Shown here: positions 16,307-60,600 of the stretch, piece after piece
Layout: each line of letters begins with the position of its first letter
Position numbering within the stretch: the stretch's first letter is position 1
Virus record (IMG/VR): IMGVR_UViG_3300012931_000018
Coordinates: 1-64,000 of that record
Direction: 5' to 3' (one strand)
Length of the DNA: 64,000 bases
Origin: a virus
Notes under the pieces: generated by a model
What the model saw: only the letters and a program-made list of their open reading frames with translations
The model's database searches: none
Told to the model about the DNA's origin: nothing
Translations under genes and position numbers: made by a program

Positions 16307-17213
16307 TGAAAATATTATAATAATAGATGGTATGAATTTATTTCACCGTGTTTATTATAAGTTTTTTATGTTAACAAATAAGGATGGATATCCGAGTGGT
16401 GCTGTGTACGGATTTTTAAGTTCATTGTTGAATATTATTTCTGAATGTGATAGCAATAAACTTATTATATGTTGGGAAAGTAAAAAGAAGAATTGGAAAA
16501 AAATTGAATCTGAAAATTATAAATCTAATCGTGATGGAAGATTTACTTCAGAACAACAAGATGCATTTAAGTTATGTTTTAATGATGTAGTTGATTTTTG
16601 TAAAAAGATTGGGATATTGCAAATCAGAATTGATGGTTATGAAGCTGATGATGTTATATTTTTTATTACTAATAAAATGAAAAAAAATATTGTTGTTGTT
16701 AGCAAAGATAAAGATATGCTTCAACTTATTAATGATAAAAATAATATTACTTGTTTTAGGAATAATTCTAAAGGTGGTGGATATGATTCAATTAATGAAG
16801 ATAAAGCGAGTAATATTTTTCACAATTTGAGACCTAAACAAATAGCTTATTTTTTAGCAATAGCTGGAGATGCTGGTGATAATGTTAAAGGGGTAAAAGG
16901 AATTGGTGAAAAGAAAGCATTGAAAATTATAAATCAATATGGTAAAATAACTAAAGAAAATGTTAATAAAATTTTTAATGTTTCTGAAAAACAACAATAT
17001 ATAAGATCATTAAGACTTGTTAAATCTTCATTGATTGTTAAAAGAATTGAAAATATTAAAGAAAGTAATTTTATAGGAATAGATAAGTTTGATGAAAAAG
17101 AAGTTGATAAAATGATAAAAGTTTTCGGAATAAAAAGATTTAGCACAAGTAATTTAAGGCAATTATGTAATACTAATTTCAAAAATGAAATTAGTAGAAC
17201 TTTAATTGGGTGA
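16284..17213 (+). CDS. 5'-3' exonuclease / flap endonuclease (PolI N-terminal-like)
   Basis: IIDG; YKSNR; YEADD; SKDKDMLQL; GDAGDNVKGVKGIGEKKA. Confidence 0.93.
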   Translation: MKLKKLNNENIIIIDGMNLFHRVYYKFFMLTNKDGYPSGAVYGFLSSLLNIISECDSNKLIICWESKKKNWKKIESENYKSNRDGRFTSEQQDAFKLCFNDVVDFCKKIGILQIRIDGYEADDVIFFITNKMKKNIVVVSKDKDMLQLINDKNNITCFRNNSKGGGYDSINEDKASNIFHNLRPKQIAYFLAIAGDAGDNVKGVKGIGEKKALKIINQYGKITKENVNKIFNVSEKQQYIRSLRLVKSSLIVKRIENIKESNFIGIDKFDEKEVDKMIKVFGIKRFSTSNLRQLCNTNFKNEISRTLIG

Positions 17214-26664: not shown

Positions 26665-26682
26665 ACACAGGGGATAAATAAA

Positions 26683-27261
26683 ATGAATGAAAATAAGATA
26701 ACACATTTATCAATGAATGATAATAATTCTTTATTAACGAAAGAAGAATTAACCAGAGAATTATTAAAAGTACCGGACGTATTAAAGGAACAAATTAAAG
26801 AGGCAATAGAAAATAATCTCGATGTAAGTATATTGATGCATAATACACATGCTATGGATGCTGATGGTAAAATCCAGGTACTTGGTTGCCACTATAGTAT
26901 CTTTGTTCCTTTTAATGTTATGAATACTAAGGAAAAGAATCTTGAAGTAATTGTTAAAAATATTGTATATGTTCCTTTACATGATAATTATTCTGCTAAT
27001 GTAGAAATTTATTACGCGGATAATAAAATATATTCCGAAGATATAATAATTGATAGTGTTGATATGATTAATTATATAGAAACTAAATTTAATCATGATG
27101 TTGTGAATAGAAAATATGGAACAGTGATAAATATGGATGATAATGAAGTACTTGGTTTGGAATTGGCATTGAATCCTGATCCTAATCGGACTTTACAATG
27201 TGATATAGATTGGCAATCTTTATATGTTAATTTCTATTATAAAATAGATGAGATAGAATAA
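26683..27261 (+). CDS. hypothetical protein
   Basis: ACACAGGGGA box and SD upstream. Confidence 0.7.
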   Translation: MNENKITHLSMNDNNSLLTKEELTRELLKVPDVLKEQIKEAIENNLDVSILMHNTHAMDADGKIQVLGCHYSIFVPFNVMNTKEKNLEVIVKNIVYVPLHDNYSANVEIYYADNKIYSEDIIIDSVDMINYIETKFNHDVVNRKYGTVINMDDNEVLGLELALNPDPNRTLQCDIDWQSLYVNFYYKIDEIE

Positions 27262-28242: not shown

Positions 28243-29504
28243 AACGTTTAATTTATTTACTGCCGTTTGTGTTATTGATAATATTTCAATTAATATTAAT
28301 AGATAAAGGAATATTATCGATATCCGCTGATGAAAGCGGTCATACCTTAAATGCTTATAATTATTATATAGGCAAAGGGAGTTTGTGGGGTATGTGGCTG
28401 CCAGGGCAACAGCTTATTTATACGGCGGGATTTATGGTATGGAAAGATTTAGTGTGGATGCCACGAATAGTGAGTATGATGTTTGGAATATTTACATTGA
28501 TAAGTTTAATGCTGGTGACTAAAGAATTATTTAAGGATAAGAATATAATTGTTATGACTGGAGTGTTTGGAAGTTTATTTGTTGGAATAAATTTATATAG
28601 CGTATTGCCCTTGACTGAAATATATTTCTTTGCTTTTATATTATTGGAAATATATTTAATGCTATATTATTTACGGACTGGTAAGAAAGAATGGCTGGTA
28701 ATTATAGTTGGAATAATAGCAACAATGTTTCGTTATGATGGTTGGGTATTTATACTGGTTGTGGGCGGTATGATGATAAAGAAATTAAAATATAAAACTA
28801 TACTGTTGTTTTTATTTCCGGTGGTATGGGTAATGTATGGATGGATAATGACAGGGGATATGTTTGGGTTTATACATAGTGTTGCTGAAAGAAGAATAGC
28901 GTTGCGAAATGATGAAGGTATGATATATAACTATATTCTTCTAACATTGGAATCTACTTTATTGGCTGGATTATTTTTTATTAATAAAAATAAAAAATAC
29001 TTAATGTTATATGTGATAACTTTTATTATTTGGGCAATAGCTTTATCTCGAACCGGAGCAATGCCGACTCATAATGTATGGCGTGTACCGTTGATATGGA
29101 ATATTATGATGATACCGTTTCTTGCTTATGTTGTGATGAAACCTAAACAAAAAATATTGAGCGTTGTAGTAATTATAATTATTTCACTTTTATTCATAAA
29201 GCAAACTGTTAAATATATTTCATTACCACAAAAATACATTTTAACGTGGAATGAAATTGAACTGGGTAAGAAAATTCAACAGCTCGATGGGGGAATTATT
29301 ATTCCTAAGATGGGTTGGGAATACTCGAATATTCTTGTGGTAAGTCAACGACCTGAAAGAATTTCTTTTAAAGATGGAATTAACTATATGGATTTAATAT
29401 TGTACGATTATTTAATTGTACCGCGCCGGATTTATATTGATAAGGAAGAAATATGGAATAATAAAGATTGGTTTATTTATAAATTAAAAAACACAGGGGA
29501 ATAA
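28239..29504 (+). CDS. GT-C fold multi-pass membrane glycosyltransferase (ArnT/PMT-like)
   Basis: First TM then SADE acidic loop motif; PLTE; FRYDG; many TM helices; soluble C-terminal domain. Confidence 0.72.
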   Translation: MKRLIYLLPFVLLIIFQLILIDKGILSISADESGHTLNAYNYYIGKGSLWGMWLPGQQLIYTAGFMVWKDLVWMPRIVSMMFGIFTLISLMLVTKELFKDKNIIVMTGVFGSLFVGINLYSVLPLTEIYFFAFILLEIYLMLYYLRTGKKEWLVIIVGIIATMFRYDGWVFILVVGGMMIKKLKYKTILLFLFPVVWVMYGWIMTGDMFGFIHSVAERRIALRNDEGMIYNYILLTLESTLLAGLFFINKNKKYLMLYVITFIIWAIALSRTGAMPTHNVWRVPLIWNIMMIPFLAYVVMKPKQKILSVVVIIIISLLFIKQTVKYISLPQKYILTWNEIELGKKIQQLDGGIIIPKMGWEYSNILVVSQRPERISFKDGINYMDLILYDYLIVPRRIYIDKEEIWNNKDWFIYKLKNTGE

Positions 29505-29505
29505 A

Positions 29506-29892
29506 ATGAAGAACACATTATTGAAAATATTAATTGTGATTGGCATAATAGTGCTAATAATATCAGCATCATTTACTACATTGAATGGTCAGACAATTTT
29601 GTGTACTAAACATTATCATCTAAGTACGGCAACTTGTACAGTTCCATTTATGGATGATACTTTATATGTAACCGGAAAATATTTAACAGCTGAATTTGAA
29701 TTTATATTAATAGAAATACAATTCCATGGTCTTGAATATTTGGATGCTTTACAAAAAACCAAAATAGGTGTTTGGCATATATCAGAATATATTGATGAAC
29801 AAATTAGATTTATTTATAATAGATGGATTGCTAAAAAAAGATTGCAAACAATCGATGATGATTTTTGGCAAGATGTAAATAAAAAAAGGTGA
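29506..29892 (+). CDS. exported hypothetical protein
   Basis: Signal-like N-terminus ending LNG-Q; ACACAGGGGA box upstream. Confidence 0.6.
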   Translation: MKNTLLKILIVIGIIVLIISASFTTLNGQTILCTKHYHLSTATCTVPFMDDTLYVTGKYLTAEFEFILIEIQFHGLEYLDALQKTKIGVWHISEYIDEQIRFIYNRWIAKKRLQTIDDDFWQDVNKKR

Positions 29893-29897
29893 ATAAA

Positions 29898-30890
29898 ATG
29901 GAAAAGAAAAATATTTTAATAACAGGGCATAATGGATTGGTGGGATCTGCTTTAGTAAAAATGTTTAAGAACGATGATAGAGAATATAATGTCATTGTTG
30001 CACCCAGAAGCAGTTTAGACTTAAAAAGTGAACAAAGTACCAGAAAATGGTTTGATCAAAGAATTAAAGAAGGCGTTAAGATTGATATGGTAATTTGTTG
30101 TGCTGGAAAGGTTGGTGGTATAGTTGCAAATTCTAAATATCCAGCTGAATTTTTATATGATAATGCTTTGATTGGATTGAATACAATTTCTGCTGCTTAT
30201 ATTTATAACGTAGATAAATTAATTTACTTAGGGAGTAGTTGTGTTTATCCAAAAACTTTAAAAATTATTGATGAAAATAAATTATTATCCAGTAAACTTG
30301 AACCTTCGAATGAAGGATATGCTATTGCTAAAATAATGAACATAAAACTTGTTGAAAAATTTCATATTGAATATGGTAAAAATTATTATTCAGTAATGCC
30401 TTGTAATGTTTATGGATATGGTGATAATTATAATCTTGAAAGTTCTCATGTTATTCCAGCATTGATTAGAAAATTGCATGAAGCTAAAATGAATAACAAT
30501 ACTGAATTTAATGTTATGGGTAATCCTGAAACACGACGTGAATTTACATTTTCAGATACATTGGCTGCTAAGATATATAATTTGATTGAATTTGTTAGTG
30601 CAGATTATTTAGATATAGTGTATGGTACTAATTTATTGAACCTTGGTAGTGGTGTGGAATATACGATGGATAAATTAGTGAAAACAATTTCTAAGGTTGT
30701 TGGCTATAAAGGAAAAATAAATTGGACTAATACTGGTGCTGGAGTTGAAAGAAAATTAATGGACTCGAAAAAACAAAAAGAAATTTTTTCATCATTTGGT
30801 TGTTATAATGATTTATATGAACCAGAATTAAGTGAAGGAATAAAAGTAACATATAATGATTTTTTAACTAATGAAGGATTAAGAAAATAA
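29898..30890 (+). CDS. fcl: GDP-L-fucose synthase
   Basis: ITGHNGLVGSA; AGKVGGIVAN; LGSSCVYPK; YAIAK; PCNVYG; SHVIPALIRK; RREF. Confidence 0.95.
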   Translation: MEKKNILITGHNGLVGSALVKMFKNDDREYNVIVAPRSSLDLKSEQSTRKWFDQRIKEGVKIDMVICCAGKVGGIVANSKYPAEFLYDNALIGLNTISAAYIYNVDKLIYLGSSCVYPKTLKIIDENKLLSSKLEPSNEGYAIAKIMNIKLVEKFHIEYGKNYYSVMPCNVYGYGDNYNLESSHVIPALIRKLHEAKMNNNTEFNVMGNPETRREFTFSDTLAAKIYNLIEFVSADYLDIVYGTNLLNLGSGVEYTMDKLVKTISKVVGYKGKINWTNTGAGVERKLMDSKKQKEIFSSFGCYNDLYEPELSEGIKVTYNDFLTNEGLRK

Positions 30891-31001
30891 TTTGTTAATA
30901 ATCGTCATATATTCATTAGACATGAAAAAATGGCACCAAGATAAGAAAACACAGGTGCAATAAATAATTAATTATACTACAATTTATTTCGGAGATTATT
31001 A

Positions 31002-31151
31002 ATGGAAAAAGAAAAAGAAAAAAATGAAACTGAAAGTAAATCAAATGAAGTTAAGACGGAATTTGATAAACTTTCAAAAGTTCAGAAAGATGTTGTCATG
31101 TCTGAATTAAATAAAAATCAGAAAACATCTGAGGTAAAAAATGAAAATTAA
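31002..31151 (+). CDS. small hypothetical protein (49 aa, not in the ORF track)
   Basis: GGAG SD; MEKEKEKNETESK...KNEN* overlaps the next start. Confidence 0.5.
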   Translation: MEKEKEKNETESKSNEVKTEFDKLSKVQKDVVMSELNKNQKTSEVKNEN

Positions 31152-35362: not shown

Positions 35363-35372
35363 ACACAGGAAA
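35363..35372 (+). promoter_or_regulatory. ACACAGGAAA box upstream of terL
   Basis: Recurring motif at late-gene starts. Confidence 0.55.
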
Positions 35373-37373: not shown

Positions 37374-37383
37374 ACACAGGAAA
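37374..37383 (+). promoter_or_regulatory. ACACAGGAAA box
   Basis: Recurring motif; ATG at 37390. Confidence 0.55.
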
Positions 37384-48482: not shown

Positions 48483-48494
48483 ATAATATTTTTA

Positions 48495-48527
48495 AATGGT
48501 GATAAAATTTTATCACCGTTTTTATTT
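48495..48527 (+). terminator. intrinsic terminator
   Basis: GGTGATAAA/TTTATCACC stem with a T-tail. Confidence 0.8.
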
Positions 48528-48536
48528 ATATAAATA

Positions 48537-48565
48537 ACACAGGAAAATAAAATGGACACAGGAAA
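48537..48565 (+). promoter_or_regulatory. two ACACAGGAAA boxes flanking ATG 48552
   Basis: 48537-48546 and 48556-48565. Confidence 0.55.
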
Positions 48566-50675
48566 AAAAATTCTTAATGAAAAAAAAGAACATCAAACTA
48601 AAACTATATCCATAAGAAGTGATGAAAAATATATTCATCTAACTATTAATAAAGAATTTTTAACCACAAAAAATAATTTTGAAATTTATCAAAGCATAAT
48701 GCTTGCAACATCTCCAATATTTACTAATGAAAATAAAGTCTTATTTAATAATAGAATAACTGCGGTTCCAAATAAATCTATTACCAAAAAATTATTCCCT
48801 CATATAGCATTTTTTATAGAAAATAAATCTCATTATACAGGTGGTAGATATTCAATGTGGCAACAAGCTGTATTGCTTTCTAATGTTGCTGATGTCACTA
48901 TTGTAACAAATGCAATTCCAAAATTTAGAGATGATTTTAAACCATATGAAACTGATTTTTTAAAAATCATTGTTAACAATAATTATTTGATTGATAATGA
49001 AAATAATGAATTTGATTTGATAATAGGCGTTCCGATAATAGCTGGTGAATTTGCAACTCAATATGCAAAGAAATTTAATTTACCATTATATCTTCAATTA
49101 TTTGAAAGTCCAAATTGGGTCAAACAATTTAGAGATTCATCACCTGATGCTACTGAAGAATTTTGGTCAGGATATAAAGAATGTTTAAAACAAGCTGATA
49201 AAATTTTAGTTCCAAGTATTGAAAGTTCAAATTGGTTAAGAAAATGGGATGAAAAATTTAATGATATTCCTATATCTGTTATTTATCCTTGCATAAATCA
49301 ATTTGCTGCTGATTATGTTAAACTTAATTATGGAAGTAAAAGATGTAAAAATGAAAAAGTTAATCTTGTGATGTCATCAAGAATGACTGATTTCAAATCA
49401 CCTATGGCAATAATAAAAAAACTCAACAAAGATAAATATGCTTTTCATTTTATAGGAAAAGTTTGGGATATAACTAATAAAGGTTTGGAAGAACTGAAAA
49501 ATAAAGGATATGATATAACAGTACATGGAATGATTAATGATGTGGAAAAATTCAAAATATTAGCAGATTGTGATATCCTTATCCACCCGTCTATTTTTGA
49601 AGGTTATGGTATGCCACCGCTTGAGGGTTTTTACGCTAATAGAAGCGTTATAGCGTATGATTTACCCGTTTTGAGGGAAATATACGGGGATAATATAATT
49701 TACGCTAAATTAGGTGATGCTAATGATTTTGCAAATAAAATAGAAAAAGAAAGTGAAAAAATAAAAAATAATGGATGTTATTATGCTGATAGCAATGTAA
49801 TTAAATATGCAACAGTCAAATATAATTTAAGTTGTTTAATGACTGAACTTGATATTCCTAAAATAACTGCCGGTATGATTGTTTATAATGGAATGGATTA
49901 TATAAAGCAATCAATAGGTTCTATTTATAAAAATTTATTTGAATTGATTATTGTTGAAGGTGCTGTTAAAGGTTATACTGATGAAAATAATTATACAAGT
50001 GCTGATGGAACTATTAAATATTTAGAAGAATCTTTATTAAATGATCATATTCATAAAATAAATCTTATCAAGAAAGATAAATTTTGGGAAAATAAAATTG
50101 AAATGCAAAATCATATTGCTGAAAATGTAAATGGTGATTTTTATCTTAAACTTGATCATGATGAAATTTGGAAACCGGAAACTTTAATTGAAGCTATTAA
50201 TGAATTTTATAAAGATAAAAATTTAATAATGCTTAAAATGCCATTTTATCATTTTTGGCTTAACTTCAAAACAATAGCTAAAGATGCTGGTGGTAAATGG
50301 TCAACTTGCCACCCAAGACTTTGGAGATGGAAAAAAAGTTATAAGCATACAATTAGTTTTAATCATTTCATAGATACTGAAAATGGTTTACCAGTTATAT
50401 CTCCATCAAAAGATTTTATTGGAGATCGAATTTATCATTTTGGTTATGTAAGAAAATTAAAAATATTGCAAAATAAAATTCATTATTATTCAAATCGTGG
50501 AATTGAAAAATTTGTTCAAGATACAGTTACAGATTATTCTGATGGTAAACCTACTCAACCAACACAAAAAGTAGAATCATGGGCAATTGATTTTGAAGGA
50601 ACACTTCCAAAAATATTAGATAATCACCCATATAAATCTTTATTAGACATTAGAAAATATCAAGATGAGGAATAG
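48552..50675 (+). CDS. bifunctional glycosyltransferase (GT4-like GT-B plus GT2-like GT-A)
   Basis: DILIHPSIFEGYGMPPLEG; ITAGMIVYNG...SADGT...LKLDHDE. Confidence 0.9.
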   Translation: MDTGKKILNEKKEHQTKTISIRSDEKYIHLTINKEFLTTKNNFEIYQSIMLATSPIFTNENKVLFNNRITAVPNKSITKKLFPHIAFFIENKSHYTGGRYSMWQQAVLLSNVADVTIVTNAIPKFRDDFKPYETDFLKIIVNNNYLIDNENNEFDLIIGVPIIAGEFATQYAKKFNLPLYLQLFESPNWVKQFRDSSPDATEEFWSGYKECLKQADKILVPSIESSNWLRKWDEKFNDIPISVIYPCINQFAADYVKLNYGSKRCKNEKVNLVMSSRMTDFKSPMAIIKKLNKDKYAFHFIGKVWDITNKGLEELKNKGYDITVHGMINDVEKFKILADCDILIHPSIFEGYGMPPLEGFYANRSVIAYDLPVLREIYGDNIIYAKLGDANDFANKIEKESEKIKNNGCYYADSNVIKYATVKYNLSCLMTELDIPKITAGMIVYNGMDYIKQSIGSIYKNLFELIIVEGAVKGYTDENNYTSADGTIKYLEESLLNDHIHKINLIKKDKFWENKIEMQNHIAENVNGDFYLKLDHDEIWKPETLIEAINEFYKDKNLIMLKMPFYHFWLNFKTIAKDAGGKWSTCHPRLWRWKKSYKHTISFNHFIDTENGLPVISPSKDFIGDRIYHFGYVRKLKILQNKIHYYSNRGIEKFVQDTVTDYSDGKPTQPTQKVESWAIDFEGTLPKILDNHPYKSLLDIRKYQDEE

Positions 50676-53763: not shown

Positions 53764-54312
53764 ATGAAAAATAATAACACAGGATTGAGATTTAAATTTT
53801 TCTTTAAAGGTGAAAACCAAAAAGATTATAATTGGATGGATTCTGAATTCATTCGACAATTAAGAAGTAATATAAATGTAAATAAATTTTTATTTCAAAC
53901 TAAAAATATTACAAAAATAGAACAAGAATATTGGTGGGAGCATGAATATAGTAAAAATGAAAATTGGAAAATATGGATTATATATGATGAAAAAATTGAA
54001 TGCCCTATCGGCTATATAAATATGCATATCGATAGTATTGCTCATCGGAGATGTCAAGTTGATTATATTATATCGCCTGATTTTGATGAAATGAAATATG
54101 AAACTAAAATAATTAAATGGATGATAAATTCTGCTAAAAAAATTGAAATAGATATTCATAAAATATGGTTATATGTTTTCCCTGAAAATGAAAGAAAGAT
54201 AGAATTGTTAAATAAAAAATTTGGATTTGAAATTGATGGCATTATTAGAGATCATGTTTATAAAGATGGGAAATTTAGAAGTGTATATTTAATGAGTCTT
54301 TTAGTTTCTTAA
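53764..54312 (+). CDS. GNAT N-acetyltransferase (RimJ/PseH-like)
   Basis: IRQLR...ITKIEQEYWW...HKIWLYVFPENER...FGFEIDG. Confidence 0.8.
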   Translation: MKNNNTGLRFKFFFKGENQKDYNWMDSEFIRQLRSNINVNKFLFQTKNITKIEQEYWWEHEYSKNENWKIWIIYDEKIECPIGYINMHIDSIAHRRCQVDYIISPDFDEMKYETKIIKWMINSAKKIEIDIHKIWLYVFPENERKIELLNKKFGFEIDGIIRDHVYKDGKFRSVYLMSLLVS

Positions 54313-54393
54313 AAGGTATTAAATGTGAAAGTAATTTCTGAAAATATAAACCTATAATTATATTTTAATCAGTTAATAAAAGGAAAATATAAG

Positions 54394-54993
54394 ATGGCGG
54401 TAACATTTTATGGAAGCGCTGAAAAAGCAGCAGACCTTGCTGGCGTTGATGAAACTGAAATAACAGATGAAATGATAGAGGCAATAAATTCTGTTATAGA
54501 TTCTGAAATCAGAACAGAAGGATTTACAAAAAAAGAAGTAACAGAATATTATGATATCAATGATAATAATAAAAAACAATTGATGTTAAAAAAATATCCT
54601 GTTATTATTAATACACTTGAAATAACTGATAATTGTGATGATGAAAGTTCAGGTATTGTTGATTCAGATAATTATAAAATAGATTTAGAAACTGGTATTG
54701 TTCAATTCAAATCTACTGTTGCTGCATTAACAAAAGGTTTTAAAACAGTTAAAGCGAAATATAGTCATGGTTTTGATACAGTACCTGCAATAATTATAGA
54801 ATTGGCAACATTATTGATGGCTAAATATGCAAAAGTAAAAGATCAAAATGGAGATGCTGATGGATTGGCAAGTTTCAGTGCTGGTAATTATAATGAAAGA
54901 AGGGATTTGCAATTTTTAAATGTAAATTCTGAATTCGATTCTATGATAAAAAAATTAACTGATAAAGCAAAAATACTTTATTATTTAGAATAA
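54394..54993 (+). CDS. head-tail adaptor/connector
   Basis: LKKYPV...IDLETG...YSHGFDTVPA; position. Confidence 0.75.
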   Translation: MAVTFYGSAEKAADLAGVDETEITDEMIEAINSVIDSEIRTEGFTKKEVTEYYDINDNNKKQLMLKKYPVIINTLEITDNCDDESSGIVDSDNYKIDLETGIVQFKSTVAALTKGFKTVKAKYSHGFDTVPAIIIELATLLMAKYAKVKDQNGDADGLASFSAGNYNERRDLQFLNVNSEFDSMIKKLTDKAKILYYLE

Positions 54994-54995
54994 TA

Positions 54996-55361
54996 ATGAA
55001 ACCTATTAGATTAAAAATATTGAATAAAAGAGTTACAATAGTATCTATTGGGAATACTATTGGATCAACAGGTTCTGTTAGTGGTGGAGATACTACTGTA
55101 TATAGCAATTTACCAATTAGAATAACAAAAGCTAAAGGTGATAACAATGTAAAAGATTTAGGCATTTCGGCTTCGAGTAATTATCTTGGTTTTATTCAAT
55201 GTGAATTAACTATAAATAATGTTGTGACTACAATTGTTATTAAAACAGGTTATATAGTTATTGATGGTTCTGTTAGATATAAAGTTGATTATGTAGATAG
55301 TGCCCCAGGTGGTCTTGAAGGACACCATCAAGAATTATATATGTCAACATTAGGAAAATAA
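54996..55361 (+). CDS. head closure (stopper) protein
   Basis: Size and position; HHQELY. Confidence 0.65.
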   Translation: MKPIRLKILNKRVTIVSIGNTIGSTGSVSGGDTTVYSNLPIRITKAKGDNNVKDLGISASSNYLGFIQCELTINNVVTTIVIKTGYIVIDGSVRYKVDYVDSAPGGLEGHHQELYMSTLGK

Positions 55362-55362
55362 A

Positions 55363-55791
55363 ATGGCAACTTTTACTGGAAAAGCTAATGCAAGATTTGG
55401 TTTTTATGTAGTTAATCCTAATTCTGCATTTAATAAATTATTATCATATTCAAAAAAAGTAATTGAACCAGCATTATTTATAGGATTCAAAAAAGCATTA
55501 TATGTTATAGAACGTGAAGCAGTTAGATTAATAAATCAAGGTTATTATAAACCAGCAGTTGATACAGGTCATATGAGACGTTCTGTAACATCGAAAATTC
55601 TTTATTCAACTCATAGAGAAATAGCTGGTGCTGTTGGTGTAATTGATACAAGTTATACTATTTATGTTCATGAAGGGACTTATAAAATGGAAAAGCGTCC
55701 TTTCTTGACTGATGCAGTTGAAAATAAAAAAGAAGAAATAATTGATTTATTTAGAGGAATTATAAAGACTGCTATCAAGGTGAAAAAATGA
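55363..55791 (+). CDS. HK97 gp10-like neck/tail completion protein
   Basis: AVDTGHMRRSV...YVHEGTYKMEKRPFL. Confidence 0.8.
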   Translation: MATFTGKANARFGFYVVNPNSAFNKLLSYSKKVIEPALFIGFKKALYVIEREAVRLINQGYYKPAVDTGHMRRSVTSKILYSTHREIAGAVGVIDTSYTIYVHEGTYKMEKRPFLTDAVENKKEEIIDLFRGIIKTAIKVKK

Positions 55792-56270
55792 ATCAAAATT
55801 ATGCAAAAGAAAATGTTATTTTAGAAGCTATAAGGACAATATTGGTTGGTGATAATGCTATATTAACAACTCAGGTGAAATCAATACACCAATATTGTGA
55901 AGATAGAATAATAAAGAAGACAGCATTTACTGAACCACCAGGCAATACATTAATAATGATGGAAATTATTCGTAGAGGTGGTCAAGATGGAATTCCATCA
56001 AGTAATTGGTTCTTAACTATAACAGCAGTTATACCAATGGATTCATTAAATGCTCAAGACATTGTAGTTGAGATGGCATCGAGAATAGAATTCTTATTAA
56101 ATAGAAAACCTGCTAATCTAAATTCTGTTGTTAGCTCAACAAAATATTTAAGATGCCGATATATAAATCATATTGGGACAATACCTGTTGATGATGATGT
56201 AAAAAAACTTTATAAAAGAGATGTTACATTTGATATTATTGTAGATGATGAAATAATGAAACTTAATTAA
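55788..56270 (+). CDS. tail terminator (putative)
   Basis: ILEAIRTIL N-terminus; directly precedes the tail tube gene. Confidence 0.6.
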   Translation: MNQNYAKENVILEAIRTILVGDNAILTTQVKSIHQYCEDRIIKKTAFTEPPGNTLIMMEIIRRGGQDGIPSSNWFLTITAVIPMDSLNAQDIVVEMASRIEFLLNRKPANLNSVVSSTKYLRCRYINHIGTIPVDDDVKKLYKRDVTFDIIVDDEIMKLN

Positions 56271-56307
56271 TTTATTAAAACAAACATTAAATAATGTGAG
56301 GTAGAAA

Positions 56308-56760
56308 ATGGCAGTTCAATTTGGTATGGCAACAATGGTTATGGGTGGAGTTGAAATAGGGTGCTTACAAAACGTAAGTATTGATTTTAGCTTCGATACA
56401 GCGGAATTATTTTGTGGTTCTGCATTATATCCAAAAGATGTAAGAACTCATACAGCACATATTACAGGTAATGCAGAATATGCTGAAATAACCGCCGTTG
56501 GATTGGAAAAAATTCTTGGAGCAACAAGAACTGGTAGTTCATTGGCATTAGATAATACTAATGCACCACAAAAATTTCAATTGGTTACTTCTTTAATAAC
56601 CGATGGAATTACTTTTTCAATAACATTTAAGAAAGTTCAATCAACTAAATTATCATTAGCATTTGCAAGAGATGGACACTTAATTCCTAATTTTGATTTT
56701 CAAGTTCAATCTGATACAGATGGTAGTGTTGCTACAATTGAAGTTGGTGATGTATCTTAA
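56308..56760 (+). CDS. major tail (tube) protein
   Basis: IGCLQNVSIDFSFDTAELF; beta-rich; precedes chaperone and TMP. Confidence 0.75.
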   Translation: MAVQFGMATMVMGGVEIGCLQNVSIDFSFDTAELFCGSALYPKDVRTHTAHITGNAEYAEITAVGLEKILGATRTGSSLALDNTNAPQKFQLVTSLITDGITFSITFKKVQSTKLSLAFARDGHLIPNFDFQVQSDTDGSVATIEVGDVS

Positions 56761-56785
56761 TAATAATTTAGCTATATGCTGATCT

Positions 56786-56876
56786 ATGCACTGGCTTAAA
56801 TGAAATCAGTTTCCTGTGTCTGAGAGTAGTTTAAGTCAGTTGCATTAATTTATATTAACACAGGAATCACAGGAAA
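56786..56876 (+). ncRNA. candidate structured RNA: hairpin with UUUCCUGUGU loop plus two downstream complementary boxes
   Basis: Outer stem 56786-56800/56830-56845; inner TCAG/CTGA; loop 56810-56819; ACACAGGAA at 56858 and CACAGGAAA at 56868. Confidence 0.55.
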
Positions 56877-56893
56877 ATATTATTGAGGTTAAT

Positions 56894-57331
56894 ATGTCTA
56901 ACAGTGAAAAAACTCCAGCAGCATTTATCGAAGATCAAGAACAAAAGGTTAAAAATATTCTTGGCTATGGTCAAAAATTAAAAGTATTTATAGGGAAAAA
57001 TGAAAAAAATGAAGATGAATTCAAAGAATATCATTTTTGTCCAGTTTCATTATCGGATATTCCTGACTTAACTAAATCATTAAATGAATTTGGTAAGACT
57101 GCTAAAAATAAAAATTGGACAAAAGAATCATTAGAAACTGTTGCTAAAATTATTCAACTTAGTCTTAAAAGAGCACATGGTGAAATCCAAATTGATACAT
57201 TATTAAATGAATTTGATTTTGGATCATTAGCTAAAGCAGTTAGAATAGCAATAAATGTAAATGATTTTTTATCAGAGATGCAAACAATTCAGCAGACATT
57301 CGAAACCATGGACAAAATGGACAAGAAGTAG
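56894..57331 (+). CDS. tail assembly chaperone (gpG-like)
   Basis: Between tail tube and TMP; slippery T TTT TTA near its end. Confidence 0.8.
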   Translation: MSNSEKTPAAFIEDQEQKVKNILGYGQKLKVFIGKNEKNEDEFKEYHFCPVSLSDIPDLTKSLNEFGKTAKNKNWTKESLETVAKIIQLSLKRAHGEIQIDTLLNEFDFGSLAKAVRIAINVNDFLSEMQTIQQTFETMDKMDKK

Positions 57332-57660
57332 GGGAACAATTAGATATATATGGAATTGTTGCACTACTTTCTGAAAAAGGATGGACTATTGAATATATAA
57401 TGAACTTAACTTGGGTTCAATTGAATTGTTTGCTTAAAGGAATAGGACAAGTGAATGATATTAGAAGTAAGGAAATTGAAAAGAATAAAAATAAGAATAA
57501 AATAAAAAGTGGTAAAAAAAATAATTCAACACCAGAAATTAATGATGCTATGAGCTTGCTTACATTGCCAGGTTTTAATCTATCTAAACAAGCTAAAGAA
57601 AAGTTGATACAGATAATGAAAGATAGAAAGCAGAAAAAAGAGGAACAGAAAAATGGTTGA
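57265..57660 (+). CDS. tail assembly chaperone -1 frameshift extension (gpGT-like)
   Basis: The -1 frame is open from the slippery site (57265-57271) through 57660; GWTIEYIMNLTWVQL. Confidence 0.8.
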   Translation, partial: FFIRDANNSADIRNHGQNGQEVGEQLDIYGIVALLSEKGWTIEYIMNLTWVQLNCLLKGIGQVNDIRSKEIEKNKNKNKIKSGKKNNSTPEINDAMSLLTLPGFNLSKQAKEKLIQIMKDRKQKKEEQKNG

Positions 57661-60600
57661 TGATAAAAATTTCATAGAAGAATTGTGGATAAAACTTCGA
57701 GCGGATATATTAGAGTTTCATAATGGAATGATTAAAGCATCTGCTGATCTAAAAGCATTTACTGCAAAAGTTGGAGCATCACATGCTGAAATGCAAAAAT
57801 TTGGTAAAGGTGTTGGAGTTGTATCTACTGCATTAGCAGTTATGGGTGGATATGCTGCAAAAACATTTGCTGATTTTGAACAAGCAATGGCTAATACATT
57901 TTCAGTTCTCGGTGCAACTAAATCGGAAATGGAAAAGATGACGACGGTTGCCAGAGAATTTGGAACAACTTCTGTTTTTCAAGCTAAAGAAGTTGGAAAT
58001 GCTATGTATTTTTTAGCAAGTGCTGGTTATAATGCTAAGCAAACTGTTGATGCTTTGAAAGGAACATTAATGTTGGCAGCATCTACTCAAGCAGATTTAT
58101 CTGATGCTACAAAGATTGTTGTTAATACATTAAATGCTTTTGGTATGCAAGCAAATGAAGCAGAAAGAGTTTCTAACGCTTTTGCTGCTTCTATTGCTTA
58201 TTCACAAGCAGAAATAGATAAGATTGGTGAATCTATGAAATTTGTTGCACCAATTGCTTCACAATTAGGAATAAGTCTTGAGCAAACAACGGCAGCACTT
58301 GGTGAATTATATGATGCTGGTTTAGATGCAAGTCAAACTGGAACAAATTTAAGACAAGCATTTCTTAAATTATTGAATCCAACTAAAGAAGCTAAAGAAG
58401 CATTATCGAAATTAGGTTTGAAAGTTAGTGATGTAAGTCCACAAGCAAAAGATTTAGTTGGAATAATTCAATCATTTGAAAAAGTTGGTGCTGGAGCTAA
58501 AGATAAACTTGATGAACTTGCAGCAATATTTGATGCCAGAGCAGTAACAGCTATGGCTGTTCTTATTAATAAAGGTTCTGAAGCATTATTGGATATGGAA
58601 AAAAGAATTACCGGAACATCTAAAGCATCTGAAATGGCAAATATACAAATGAATACATTAACTGGATCAACAAAATTATTTATGGGCAATCTTAATAATC
58701 TATTAATAACAATAGGTGAGGTATTAGCTCCAACAATTAGAAAGATAGCCGATGTATTTATAAATTTGATAAAATATTTTCAAAGTCTCAATCCAGCATT
58801 CAAAACTTTATTAATAACAATACCGGCATTGGCAACTGTATTTGGTTTATTAATATCTCCAATAGCTTTATTGATAGGATATTTACCAAAAATAATTGCT
58901 GGTATTGGTGTATTAAAAGTAGTTATGACTGGTGCTGGTGGAGCGGTACTTGGTTGGGTTTCGGTTATTGGTTTATTAATTGCTGCTGTTGGATATCTTG
59001 TATCAGCAAATGAAACAACATCACGGAGTACTGATGAATTAATAGGTAAAATGAATGAATATACTACATCAGCAATACAACAAAAGGAAACTCAAAAACA
59101 GTTACTTGATAGTTATTTAAACTTAGCATCTAAAACTAAAAAAAATAGCGAGGAAACTGAAAAGCAGAAATTAATATTTGAAAAAATAAAAAGATTATAT
59201 CCTGATTTAATATCTGCAACGGATGATTATAGGTCAGCACAAAGTAAATTAAAAACTGTTTCTGAAAATGTAAATGCTGAATTAGCTAATTTATATGCTC
59301 AGCAAAAAAGATTAAGAGAACTTGAACTAACAATTAATACTTCTAAGTTACAACAGCAAATGAAAGAATTAAAAACAGATATGGAAGATACTTCATTGGG
59401 ACTGTGGCAATCTTTAAAATCTGGTTTTAAAGATATTTCAGGAACTAATTTATTTGGCAATGCTTTTAATACAAATTTAGAAATAACAAAAGAAAAATTT
59501 GATAAATTAGCAGCAAGTACAGAAGGATTAAAAAAATTAGAAAGTGGTTTAGAACTATTATCACAAGGTTCACGTGCATTATCAATAGATTTAGCTGAAG
59601 TTGAAACAAAGATACAAAATATAGGTAATAGAAGTGATTTAACTAAAATTGGTAAAAAGGCAGAAACTGATATACTTGAAAAACAAAAAACATTATTAGA
59701 ATCAAGATTAGACACAACTGATAAATTTGTTGATGCATATATTTCCGCTATTGAAAAAGGAAAGCAATTATTATCAATTGATACAAATATAAAAGAAAAT
59801 CAAATCGAATTAAATAATTTAAAAATGGGTCTTAAAACTGAAACACCTGTTACTGCTGAAACTGTTGATATAAATGCATTGAATGAAGTGGAAAAGGAAA
59901 CTCAGAAAAAATTAAATGAGCAATTATTTGAAATTGTAAAAAATAGATTAGAATCTGAATTGGCAATTTTGAAATTAAATAAAGATAAGAAATTATCCAT
60001 TGCTTTAGAATATGCTGATAAAGAATCTAAACTTGAAAAAGCTCAAAATGATAAAGATAAAGCTGATGCTTTAATTGATGCTAAGGAAACCGGTGCTAAT
60101 GTTATTGAAATAAAAAAATCTTTTGATGCTAAAGAAAAAAGTCGTGTAGAAGTATTAGCATTCAATATTAATGAAATAAGACAACAATTTAGAGATAAAG
60201 ATGTAAAAGAAGAGTGGAATAAATTGAGTGTTCAAAATGTAATTAATGAAGATGAACTTAATAATTATAAAAAACATCTTCAAGATAAATTATCATTTTT
60301 AGAATCTATGGATGAAAAATGGACTGATGAATATACACAAACGGTAAATGAAATTAAAAAAATAAATGAAATGATTGCAGCACCACAAGAACAAAAACTA
60401 AAATTTAATGTTGACATGAGTCAATACTCTATTGACGAAGATCAAAAAGAACTTGCTTTAGAAAATTATAAAGCATATTTAGATGAGAAATTAATATATG
60501 AAGAAGAATTTAGTGAACAATGGTATGAGATTGCATCTGAAAGAGCAAGAATTGAAAAAGAATTAATTGATATGCAAATGAGTGATATGCAAATATATTT

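Follow-up and report, generated by a model that had tools for sequence, protein, structure and literature searches.

A hairpin behind the tail tube gene of an uncultured wetland phage is very likely an RNA regulator of late protein synthesis, its loop changing together with boxes in relatives

Introduction

In the immI operon of phages P1 and P7, the c4 antisense RNA is cotranscribed with its target, and its loops pair with repeated ribosome-binding-site (RBS) boxes (Citron and Schuster 1990, as cited in PMC8198154). OppZ and CarZ of Vibrio cholerae are autoregulatory small RNAs derived from 3' untranslated regions (UTRs) that inhibit translation within their own gene cluster (PMC7398697), and in icaR of Staphylococcus aureus the 3'-UTR motif UCCCCUG pairs with the Shine-Dalgarno (SD) region in the 5' UTR and blocks initiation (PMC3868564). 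The element described here is a hairpin directly behind the tail tube gene of an uncultured wetland phage, in the first 64 kb (the window) of the IMG/VR record IMGVR_UViG_3300012931_000018. Its apical loop is complementary to short boxes in front of the next gene, a presumed tail assembly chaperone gene, and at the start of a distant glycosyltransferase gene. Loop and boxes change together in relatives, and comparison of their sequences makes it very likely that the hairpin is a genuine regulatory RNA, not described before, that acts on the synthesis of late phage proteins.

Like c4, the hairpin is a structured RNA that a phage encodes 5' of the RNA's own target, with a loop complementary to repeated boxes near RBSs and with loop and box variation matched between phages. 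The differences in specificity between the c4 RNAs of P1 and P7 correspond to matched bases in loop and target. In contrast to the hairpin, c4 serves lysogenic immunity (icd/ant), arises by processing of an early transcript, pairs through two loops and forms its own Rfam family, whereas the hairpin follows the tube gene in a late tail operon, pairs through a single loop and has a second target 8-15 kb away. No covariance-model match to c4 was obtained at 56786-56876, and the locus does not lie in an immunity operon upstream of icd/ant-type genes. A preliminary description of the locus, made from the sequence alone, had stated that no phage system of this design was known; given the c4 loops and their repeated RBS boxes, this was too strong.

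The likeness to OppZ and CarZ is that the regulator comes from the 3' end of an operon mRNA including the terminator hairpin and pairs with translation starts; complementarity to translation-initiation regions was also found here, the pairing being deduced from covariation. The seed of OppZ and CarZ is single stranded and lies 5' of the terminator, RNase E and Hfq are required, and the repressed operon is the one from which they derive, whereas the seed here is the loop of a terminator-like hairpin, and the targets are the next cistron and the distant glycosyltransferase gene, not the tube gene. No seed of the OppZ/CarZ type upstream of the terminator was found at the locus, where the apical loop itself is the seed. 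With icaR the hairpin shares a short pyrimidine-rich 3'-UTR motif (UCCCCUG there, UUUCCUGUGU here) whose pairing with an SD region blocks initiation, or would do so here. Both partners of the icaR pairing belong to a single monocistronic mRNA, and an RNase III substrate results, in contrast to partners in the following cistron and in a gene several kilobases distant, with a box that is phage specific and not a generic SD sequence. Intrinsic terminators and RNase III processing hairpins such as the T7 R sites, located after highly expressed phage structural genes, share the position, a long stem interrupted by an internal loop and, as in most relatives, a T-rich tail, but their loop is unconstrained and has no covarying partner sites. 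Complementarity and covariation of the loop with downstream boxes are present and fit pairing in cis, as in an H-type pseudoknot regulator, and pairing in trans alike. The element is a member of none of the c4, OppZ/CarZ and icaR systems, because it has no Rfam match, lies in a late tail operon, carries its seed in a terminator-like loop and has a distant target.

Structure and conservation of the hairpin

The hairpin and its surroundings comprise the following features, in coordinates of the window:

56308-56760, plus strand: tail tube gene (150 aa), with the hairpin in its 3' UTR
56786-56845, plus strand: two-tier RNA hairpin of 60 nt, beginning 25 nt after the tail-tube stop codon
56810-56819, plus strand: apical loop TTTCCTGTGT (10 nt), the anti-box and proposed antisense seed
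56846-56857, plus strand: AT-rich linker TAATTTATATTA with a weak U-rich tail (five of the first nine bases are T)

The outer arms, ATGCACTGGCTTAAA at 56786-56800 and TTTAAGTCAGTTGCAT at 56830-56845, form a stem of 16 bp with one bulged U and two G:U pairs, and together with an inner helix of 4 bp (TCAG at 56806-56809 with CTGA at 56820-56823) the minimum-free-energy (MFE) fold reaches 20 bp. A purine-rich internal loop places GAAA on the 5' side opposite GAGUA on the 3' side. The energy of the hairpin was -21.6 kcal/mol (z = -4.38), equally stable folds being found in 0 of 200 shuffles, and the reverse strand reached -13.0 kcal/mol, so that the plus strand was more stable by 8.6 kcal/mol. All sequences quoted in the preliminary description were found at the positions it gave, and its drawing agrees with the MFE fold.

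Relatives were gathered by similarity of the tail-tube protein and later of the glycosyltransferase; the set is unbiased towards RNA features because it was chosen by protein similarity alone. A first scan of viral contigs with the single protein yielded one relative, and alignments were then used to gather more. The two-tier hairpin stood at the same place in about 20 distinct relatives with a tube identity of roughly 40-80%, the closest to the window (WIN; phage genome G000) being L003 (genome G006) with 79% tube identity. In a global MAFFT alignment, 16 hairpins shared 41% identity and were too diverged for RNAalifold, and stem covariation was determined by sub-group alignment, which was usable for the closest pair only. 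Among 17 pairs compared between WIN and L003, 6 were double-compensatory, 2 were changed on one side (G:U to G:C and U:G to U:A) and 0 were broken, and the apical loop was identical at 9/10 positions though the stems differ. The fold on the plus strand was better than that on the minus strand in 20/22 hairpins (mean ddG, the difference in folding energy, -8.5 kcal/mol; Wilcoxon P = 1e-4), because many G:U pairs occur on the plus strand and almost none on the minus strand. Fold, strand and stem covariation are thereby established, and the strand-asymmetric fold shows that the structure is selected in the sense RNA, the strand already favored in the preliminary description. More distant relatives carry plain small-loop terminators (for example L040, L015, and L009), without such loop/box pairs.

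The 9 nt located 3' of the hairpin contained 59% T in 20 relatives compared to 30% in the surrounding 200 nt, and a T-run of at least 4 followed the hairpin in 12/20 relatives; the tail of the window itself has no T-run of that length. Because of the stable stem, the T-rich tail in relatives and the weak tail in the window, the hairpin is plausibly a leaky terminator or a 3' stabilizer of the tube mRNA.

The internal loop GAAA/GAGUA (56802-56805 and 56824-56828; AAGUA in L003) resembles the bulged-G or loop-E motif (AGUA/GAA), and GA-rich internal loops occur at the same level in other relatives (GGAU/UGAA, AGA/GAA, and GGA/GAA). This internal loop could be a structured kink or a protein-binding site.

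Boxes preceding the chaperone gene

Downstream of the linker, two 9-nt matches to the loop complement precede the next gene:

56858-56866, plus strand: local box 1, ACACAGGAA, at -36 to -28 from the chaperone ATG, 9-nt match
56868-56876, plus strand: local box 2, CACAGGAAA, at -26 to -18 from the chaperone ATG, 9-nt match
56885-56889, plus strand: GAGGT, the SD sequence of the chaperone gene, read from sequence
56894-57331, plus strand: 145-aa gene presumed to encode the tail assembly chaperone, the target linked in cis, named from synteny only

The chaperone gene has its SD sequence in the separate GAGGT and not in the two local boxes. Orthologues of the chaperone gene stand 3' of the hairpin in all relatives, and in most of these one to three tandem boxes at -38 to -17 are complementary to the apical loop of the same phage. 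The proximal box starts at about -26 to -23 and the distal box, which is often present, at about -36 to -31, just 5' of the SD sequence. At 14/26 loci, the 18-nt apex had an exact complementary stretch of 7 nt or more in the 70 nt that follow, compared to 7% of shuffles (binomial P = 4e-10), and two more cases were masked by over-extended stem calls. At least nine different cognate loop/box sequences occurred among the relatives, the switches being counted from distinct sequences and not on a tree. Examples of the pairs were as follows:

loop TTTCCTGTG, box CACAGGAAA
loop GGCCTGTGA, box TCACAGGCC
loop TTTTGCCTGG, box CCAGGCAAAA
loop TGCCTGTT, box AACAGGCA
loop TTCTGTGT, box ACACAGAA
loop TCTGCTTTA, box TAAAGCAGA
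loop TGGTCTG, box CAGACCA
loop CTGGTTT, box AAACCAG
loop ATTGACTGT, box ACAGTCAAT
loop TTTGCCTGG, box CCAGGCAAA
loop TTGACTGT, box ACAGTCAA

Imperfect cognate pairs (L004, L006, L034, and the ACACAGGGGA variants) differ by G:U-compatible transitions. The linker between hairpin and box measures 5-25 nt, which allows a cis pseudoknot for some boxes. The energy of the loop-box duplex favored the plus strand in 12/22 cases and is uninformative on the strand.

Boxes at the glycosyltransferase start

The second site at which boxes follow the loop is the start of the first gene of a glycan cluster, about 8 kb upstream of the hairpin in this phage and at a distance of 8-15 kb among relatives:

48494-48521, plus strand: strong terminator hairpin with T-run, just 5' of the glycosyltransferase gene
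48537-48546, plus strand: box ACACAGGAAA, at -15 to -6 of the glycosyltransferase gene, predicted unpaired with P = 0.83
48552-50675, plus strand: GT4+GT2 glycosyltransferase gene (707 aa; PF13692, PF00534, and PF00535), first of the glycan cluster
48555-48565, plus strand: box GACACAGGAAA, at +4 to +14 of the glycosyltransferase gene, 11-nt complement of 56810-56820

The box GACACAGGAAA is the best loop match among the 99 plus-strand gene starts of this phage. A complement of 7-11 nt to the loop of the same genome was found at -15 to +21 of the glycosyltransferase start in 8/9 genomes:

G000: ACACAGGAAA at -15 and GACACAGGAAA at +4 (11 nt)
G006: CCACAGGAAA at -14 (10 nt) and CACAGGAAA at +6
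G001 with L090: CAGGCAAA (8 nt)
G002: ACAGGCA (7 nt)
G003: CAGACCA (7 nt)
G004: AACCAGCC (8 nt)
G005: CACAGGCAA (9 nt)
L096: AACCAGCCAAA (11 nt)

The end of L090 and the start of G001, contigs of one sample, overlap by 150 nt with 99.3% identity inside the glycosyltransferase gene and are adjacent pieces of one phage genome. The glycosyltransferase start was the top loop match among all plus-strand gene starts in G000, G006, G004, G005, and L096 and tied near the top of this ranking in the other three genomes; Fisher combination of the rank fractions gave P = 2e-6, or 1.5e-3 with one genome per box type.

Four features of this start speak for selection on RNA pairing. G000 and G006 differ at a single loop position, the last base (T to G), and the upstream glycosyltransferase box mirrors the change (A to C). 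The box encodes Thr-Gly-Lys in G000, G002, and G005, and its synonymous Gly codon GGA or GGC tracks the loop TTCCTGT or TGCCTGT. The reading frame of the box differs between the glycosyltransferase genes of G004 and L096, which indicates selection on nucleotides and not on protein. In G005, the local box is lost and the 9-nt glycosyltransferase match is kept. The glycosyltransferase boxes were predicted to be unpaired with P of 0.6-0.8 in most genomes. Loop/box covariation is thus established at two translation-initiation sites, in line with the preliminary description, which had proposed pairing with gene-start boxes in cis or in trans and had named loop/box coevolution in relatives as a check: the hairpin is kept, and the loop tracks the boxes at both sites. 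Among hairpin-bearing genomes without the local box, G012 showed no glycosyltransferase match and G013 was ambiguous.

The strong terminator directly upstream suggests that the glycosyltransferase cluster begins a transcript of its own or is reached by read-through. In several genomes, including G003 and G004, the cluster is preceded by a strong GC-rich terminator hairpin; the cluster may have its own promoter or depend on read-through, which is relevant to the need for extra translational control. In the box-less G013 (C1, about 17190-17210; L076), a tandem AACAGGTAAACAGGAAA, a box type typical of other lineages, lies just 5' of the terminator preceding the glycosyltransferase gene, to which the loop of the tube hairpin, TTTACTGTTT, can be matched only if a bulge is allowed. 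The arrangement may be a decaying or shifted form of the loop/box system.

Further copies of the box in this phage

The exact box ACACAGGAAA occurs four times on the plus strand (35363, 37374, 48537, and 48556), compared to 0.08 copies per strand expected from composition, and its complement was found only in the loop, which bears out the earlier claim that the loop is the exact complement of a recurring box. The shorter ACACAGG occurs 10 times on the plus strand and 2 times on the minus strand of the 87.9-kb genome, with 1.7 expected per strand. Besides those at the glycosyltransferase start, the following boxes lie at gene starts:

35363-35372, plus strand: box ACACAGGAAA, at -20 to -11 of terL, specific to this phage
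37374-37383, plus strand: box ACACAGGAAA, at -16 to -7 of a 184-aa gene (37390), specific to this phage
26665-26674, plus strand: variant box ACACAGGGGA, before the ATG at 26683, loop pairing via two G:U pairs
29491-29500, plus strand: variant box ACACAGGGGA, within the 3' end of the preceding open reading frame (ORF), belonging to the ATG at 29506

The preliminary description had placed the box at many late-gene starts, with variant boxes able to pair through G:U. The G:U compatibility holds, and the box at the glycosyltransferase start is conserved; the boxes at terL, 37390, 26683, and 29506 are far above chance in this phage and do not recur in relatives. Because these four lack conservation, the wider regulon appears specific to this phage and may be recent or incidental. 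In the 35.7 kb of G006, the loop matches of at least 9 nt were the two glycosyltransferase boxes and the local box, and no others.

A promoter or transcription start as the meaning of the box, considered because of TATAAATA or TATAAT just 5' of 48537 and 35363, was rejected because the box at 29491 lies in the upstream ORF and the glycosyltransferase boxes extend after the ATG. Its place in coding sequence marks the box as an element associated with RBSs. An additional ACACAGG at 30949-30955, followed by TGCAATAAATAA, lies in a 250-nt gap (one gene ends at 30890, the next starts at 31141) with no ATG at the usual distance. The start of a 588-aa SNF2-family helicase gene carries 7-nt complements of the cognate loop in 3/6 genomes (G000 at 72001-72016, L114, outside the window, ACAGGAA; G002 at about 51470, ACAGGCA; G003 at 74788, CAGACCA). 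As a third conserved target, this gene is suggestive and too weak to claim (7 nt, 3/6 genomes).

Proposed mechanism and alternative explanations

The best overall explanation, in which fair confidence can be placed, is that the hairpin at the 3' end of the tube mRNA acts as a kissing-loop antisense element that would damp low-copy late genes. That the loop/box pairing is functional appears highly probable, and it probably acts in trans on the glycosyltransferase gene; repression of the targets is the somewhat favored outcome. The hairpin would be a structured element of the sense late mRNA and likely the 3' terminus of a large share of the abundant tube mRNA, with the 10-nt apical loop as an antisense seed for short boxes in translation-initiation regions; from these arrangements we infer termination or processing, trans action and repression. 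A processed small RNA and a timing or balancing of late translation, put forward in the preliminary description, may also apply. The first target would be the one to three tandem boxes in the chaperone leader, reached in cis on read-through transcripts or in trans, and the second the start region (-15 to +21) of the first glycosyltransferase gene, reached in trans. In this phage, terL, gene 37390 and the G:U-variant boxes at 26683 and 29506 could be added. Pairing would most likely lower initiation, because every box falls inside the 30S footprint or on its margin and a single-stranded state is predicted for the glycosyltransferase boxes. Catalytic low-copy late proteins would then be held below the structural ones as tube mRNA builds up, and repression fits because the targets are enzymes or chaperones needed in low copy.

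Several observations weigh against this explanation. The consensus terminator scan of the window did not flag the hairpin at 56786-56845, and the window tail TAATTTATATT makes a weak U-tract. Full pairing of the 10-nt loop would put it under steric strain, and the loop-box duplexes are mostly Watson-Crick, which makes them weak evidence on which strand pairs. The hairpin is present and the local box absent in L007, L039, L011, and L012. At the glycosyltransferase start, the matches of G002 and G003 measure just 7 nt and are tied with a few other gene starts, the genome represented by L216 and L105 has an 8-nt local box with 6 nt at the glycosyltransferase start, and the match is absent from the genome of L011. 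For terL and the other box genes of this phage, no cognate box was found at the orthologues in relatives.

A purely cis function, in which the loop pairs with the adjacent boxes only, as a pseudoknot or switch setting chaperone against tube translation, and the glycosyltransferase and other matches are by-products of a shared leader cassette, is unlikely. The local boxes are indeed the most widespread partner (about 17/23 hairpin loci, at a fixed -38 to -17 from the chaperone ATG), the short linker lets at least the distal box reach the loop, and L216 keeps the local box with the poorer glycosyltransferase match. The glycosyltransferase start, however, covaries in 8/9 genomes with four to five box sequences, including the synonymous-codon change and the frame shift, and G005 has its glycosyltransferase match without a local box. 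A shared cassette also leaves the boxes after the ATG, in coding sequence, unexplained.

The opposite sign of regulation is rather improbable. Loop binding would here activate or stabilize the targets, by shielding 5' regions from RNases or by leader remodeling, and couple the glycosyltransferase and chaperone positively to the tube mRNA. The position of the local boxes 5' of the SD sequence and not over it speaks for such an effect, and pseudoknot activators adjoining an RBS exist (IncI-alpha repZ). Antisense pairing within start regions such as -15 to +21 of the glycosyltransferase gene (the five-codon window), predicted to be open, normally blocks 30S binding, and the targets in this phage are low-copy proteins, which both count against activation.

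An ordinary terminator, 3' stabilizer or RNase III hairpin with a loop complementarity devoid of function is very unlikely: the position after a major tail gene is typical, most relatives have the T-rich tail and the long stem, broken by an internal loop, is reminiscent of RNase III sites of the T7 type, but terminators and processing sites put no constraint on the loop sequence, and the loop is the most conserved part between close relatives and changes with the boxes at two sites, whereas the distant relatives with plain small-loop terminators show no comparable loop/box pairs. Equally remote is a DNA-level explanation, in which a late activator or repressor particular to each phage would bind the box as DNA, the loop would be an inverted copy and all copies would coevolve with the protein; it would account for each phage having its own box, for direct copies in tandem and a single inverted one within about 60 bp, which look like operator arrays, and for the mostly Watson-Crick duplexes, but not for an inverted copy that always occupies a hairpin apex, above stems maintained through compensatory changes and G:U pairs possible only in plus-strand RNA, for boxes at RBS positions, in the first glycosyltransferase codons and in the 3' end of an upstream ORF, or for the G:U-compatible transitions in L004, L006, L034, and ACACAGGGGA.

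Significance for late-gene control

Tailed phages make hundreds of copies of tube and capsid proteins and few enzymes and chaperones from the same late transcripts, and terminators and weak RBSs are the usual explanations of such ratios. The kissing-loop antisense explanation suggests an extra, programmable layer, in which the 3' end of the most abundant tail message aims an antisense loop at the starts of low-copy genes, and it would tie virion glycosylation genes to the expression of tail genes. A further-reaching version, advanced tentatively from the sequence comparisons, makes the tube mRNA a trans regulator whose 3' hairpin, whole or as a piece of about 60-90 nt, would restrain coevolving low-copy late genes; its possible members are the glycosyltransferase cluster, the chaperone/tape-measure unit and, in this phage, terL and others. 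If true, the amount of tube message would set the ratio of enzymes to structural proteins, each phage lineage would have its own orthogonal loop/box code, and a general, so far unrecognized layer of late-gene control in tailed phages would be suggested. For an uncultured phage group, the evidence is unusually clean, with at least nine loop/box codes kept in match over two separate target sites, also through changes of synonymous codon and of reading frame, and the loop/box pairs form a natural set of orthogonal pairs that are potential small translational regulators.

Genomic context and database searches

The IMG/VR record comprises 87,945 bp with direct terminal repeats and 27% G+C, and DNA of this phage has been seen in wetland metagenomes only, a look-up of sequencing runs giving no RNA run with the sequence. 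In blastn, region 55800-57700 had no match among 50,697 GenBank phage records, and the species genomes scanned contained no prophage or cultured relative. A cmscan of 54000-59000 against 4227 Rfam families with E up to 10 gave nothing at 56786-56876 and three matches elsewhere in that region, all at chance level. A pattern scan of viral contigs with the loop and inner helix gave 99 matches, approximately the chance number, the real relative among them being G006 alone.

The tail tube protein was modeled by AlphaFold (predicted local distance difference test, pLDDT, 87.5) with a predicted tail-tube/Hcp-like beta-sandwich, and Foldseek related the model to solved siphophage and HFTV1 tube proteins (HFTV1 tail, SPR TTP, and R4C tube) with TM of about 0.7 and E of 4e-7 to 1e-3. 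The product of the chaperone-position gene had no Pfam or PHROG match; its name is based on the position between the tube gene and the tape-measure gene. L216 and L105 belong to IMGVR_UViG_3300035698_006717 (105,409 bp). Of the two ends of this contig, one is 3 kb away from the tube gene and the other 1-3 kb away from the glycosyltransferase gene, and the record probably represents a genome that is complete or circularly permuted.

Downstream of the tube gene come the chaperone-position gene (145 aa), an ORF of 86 aa and a tape-measure-like gene of 1165 aa. The 86-aa ORF (window 57400-57660) is Lys-rich and stands between the chaperone-position and tape-measure genes, the usual place of a frameshift-extended chaperone product.

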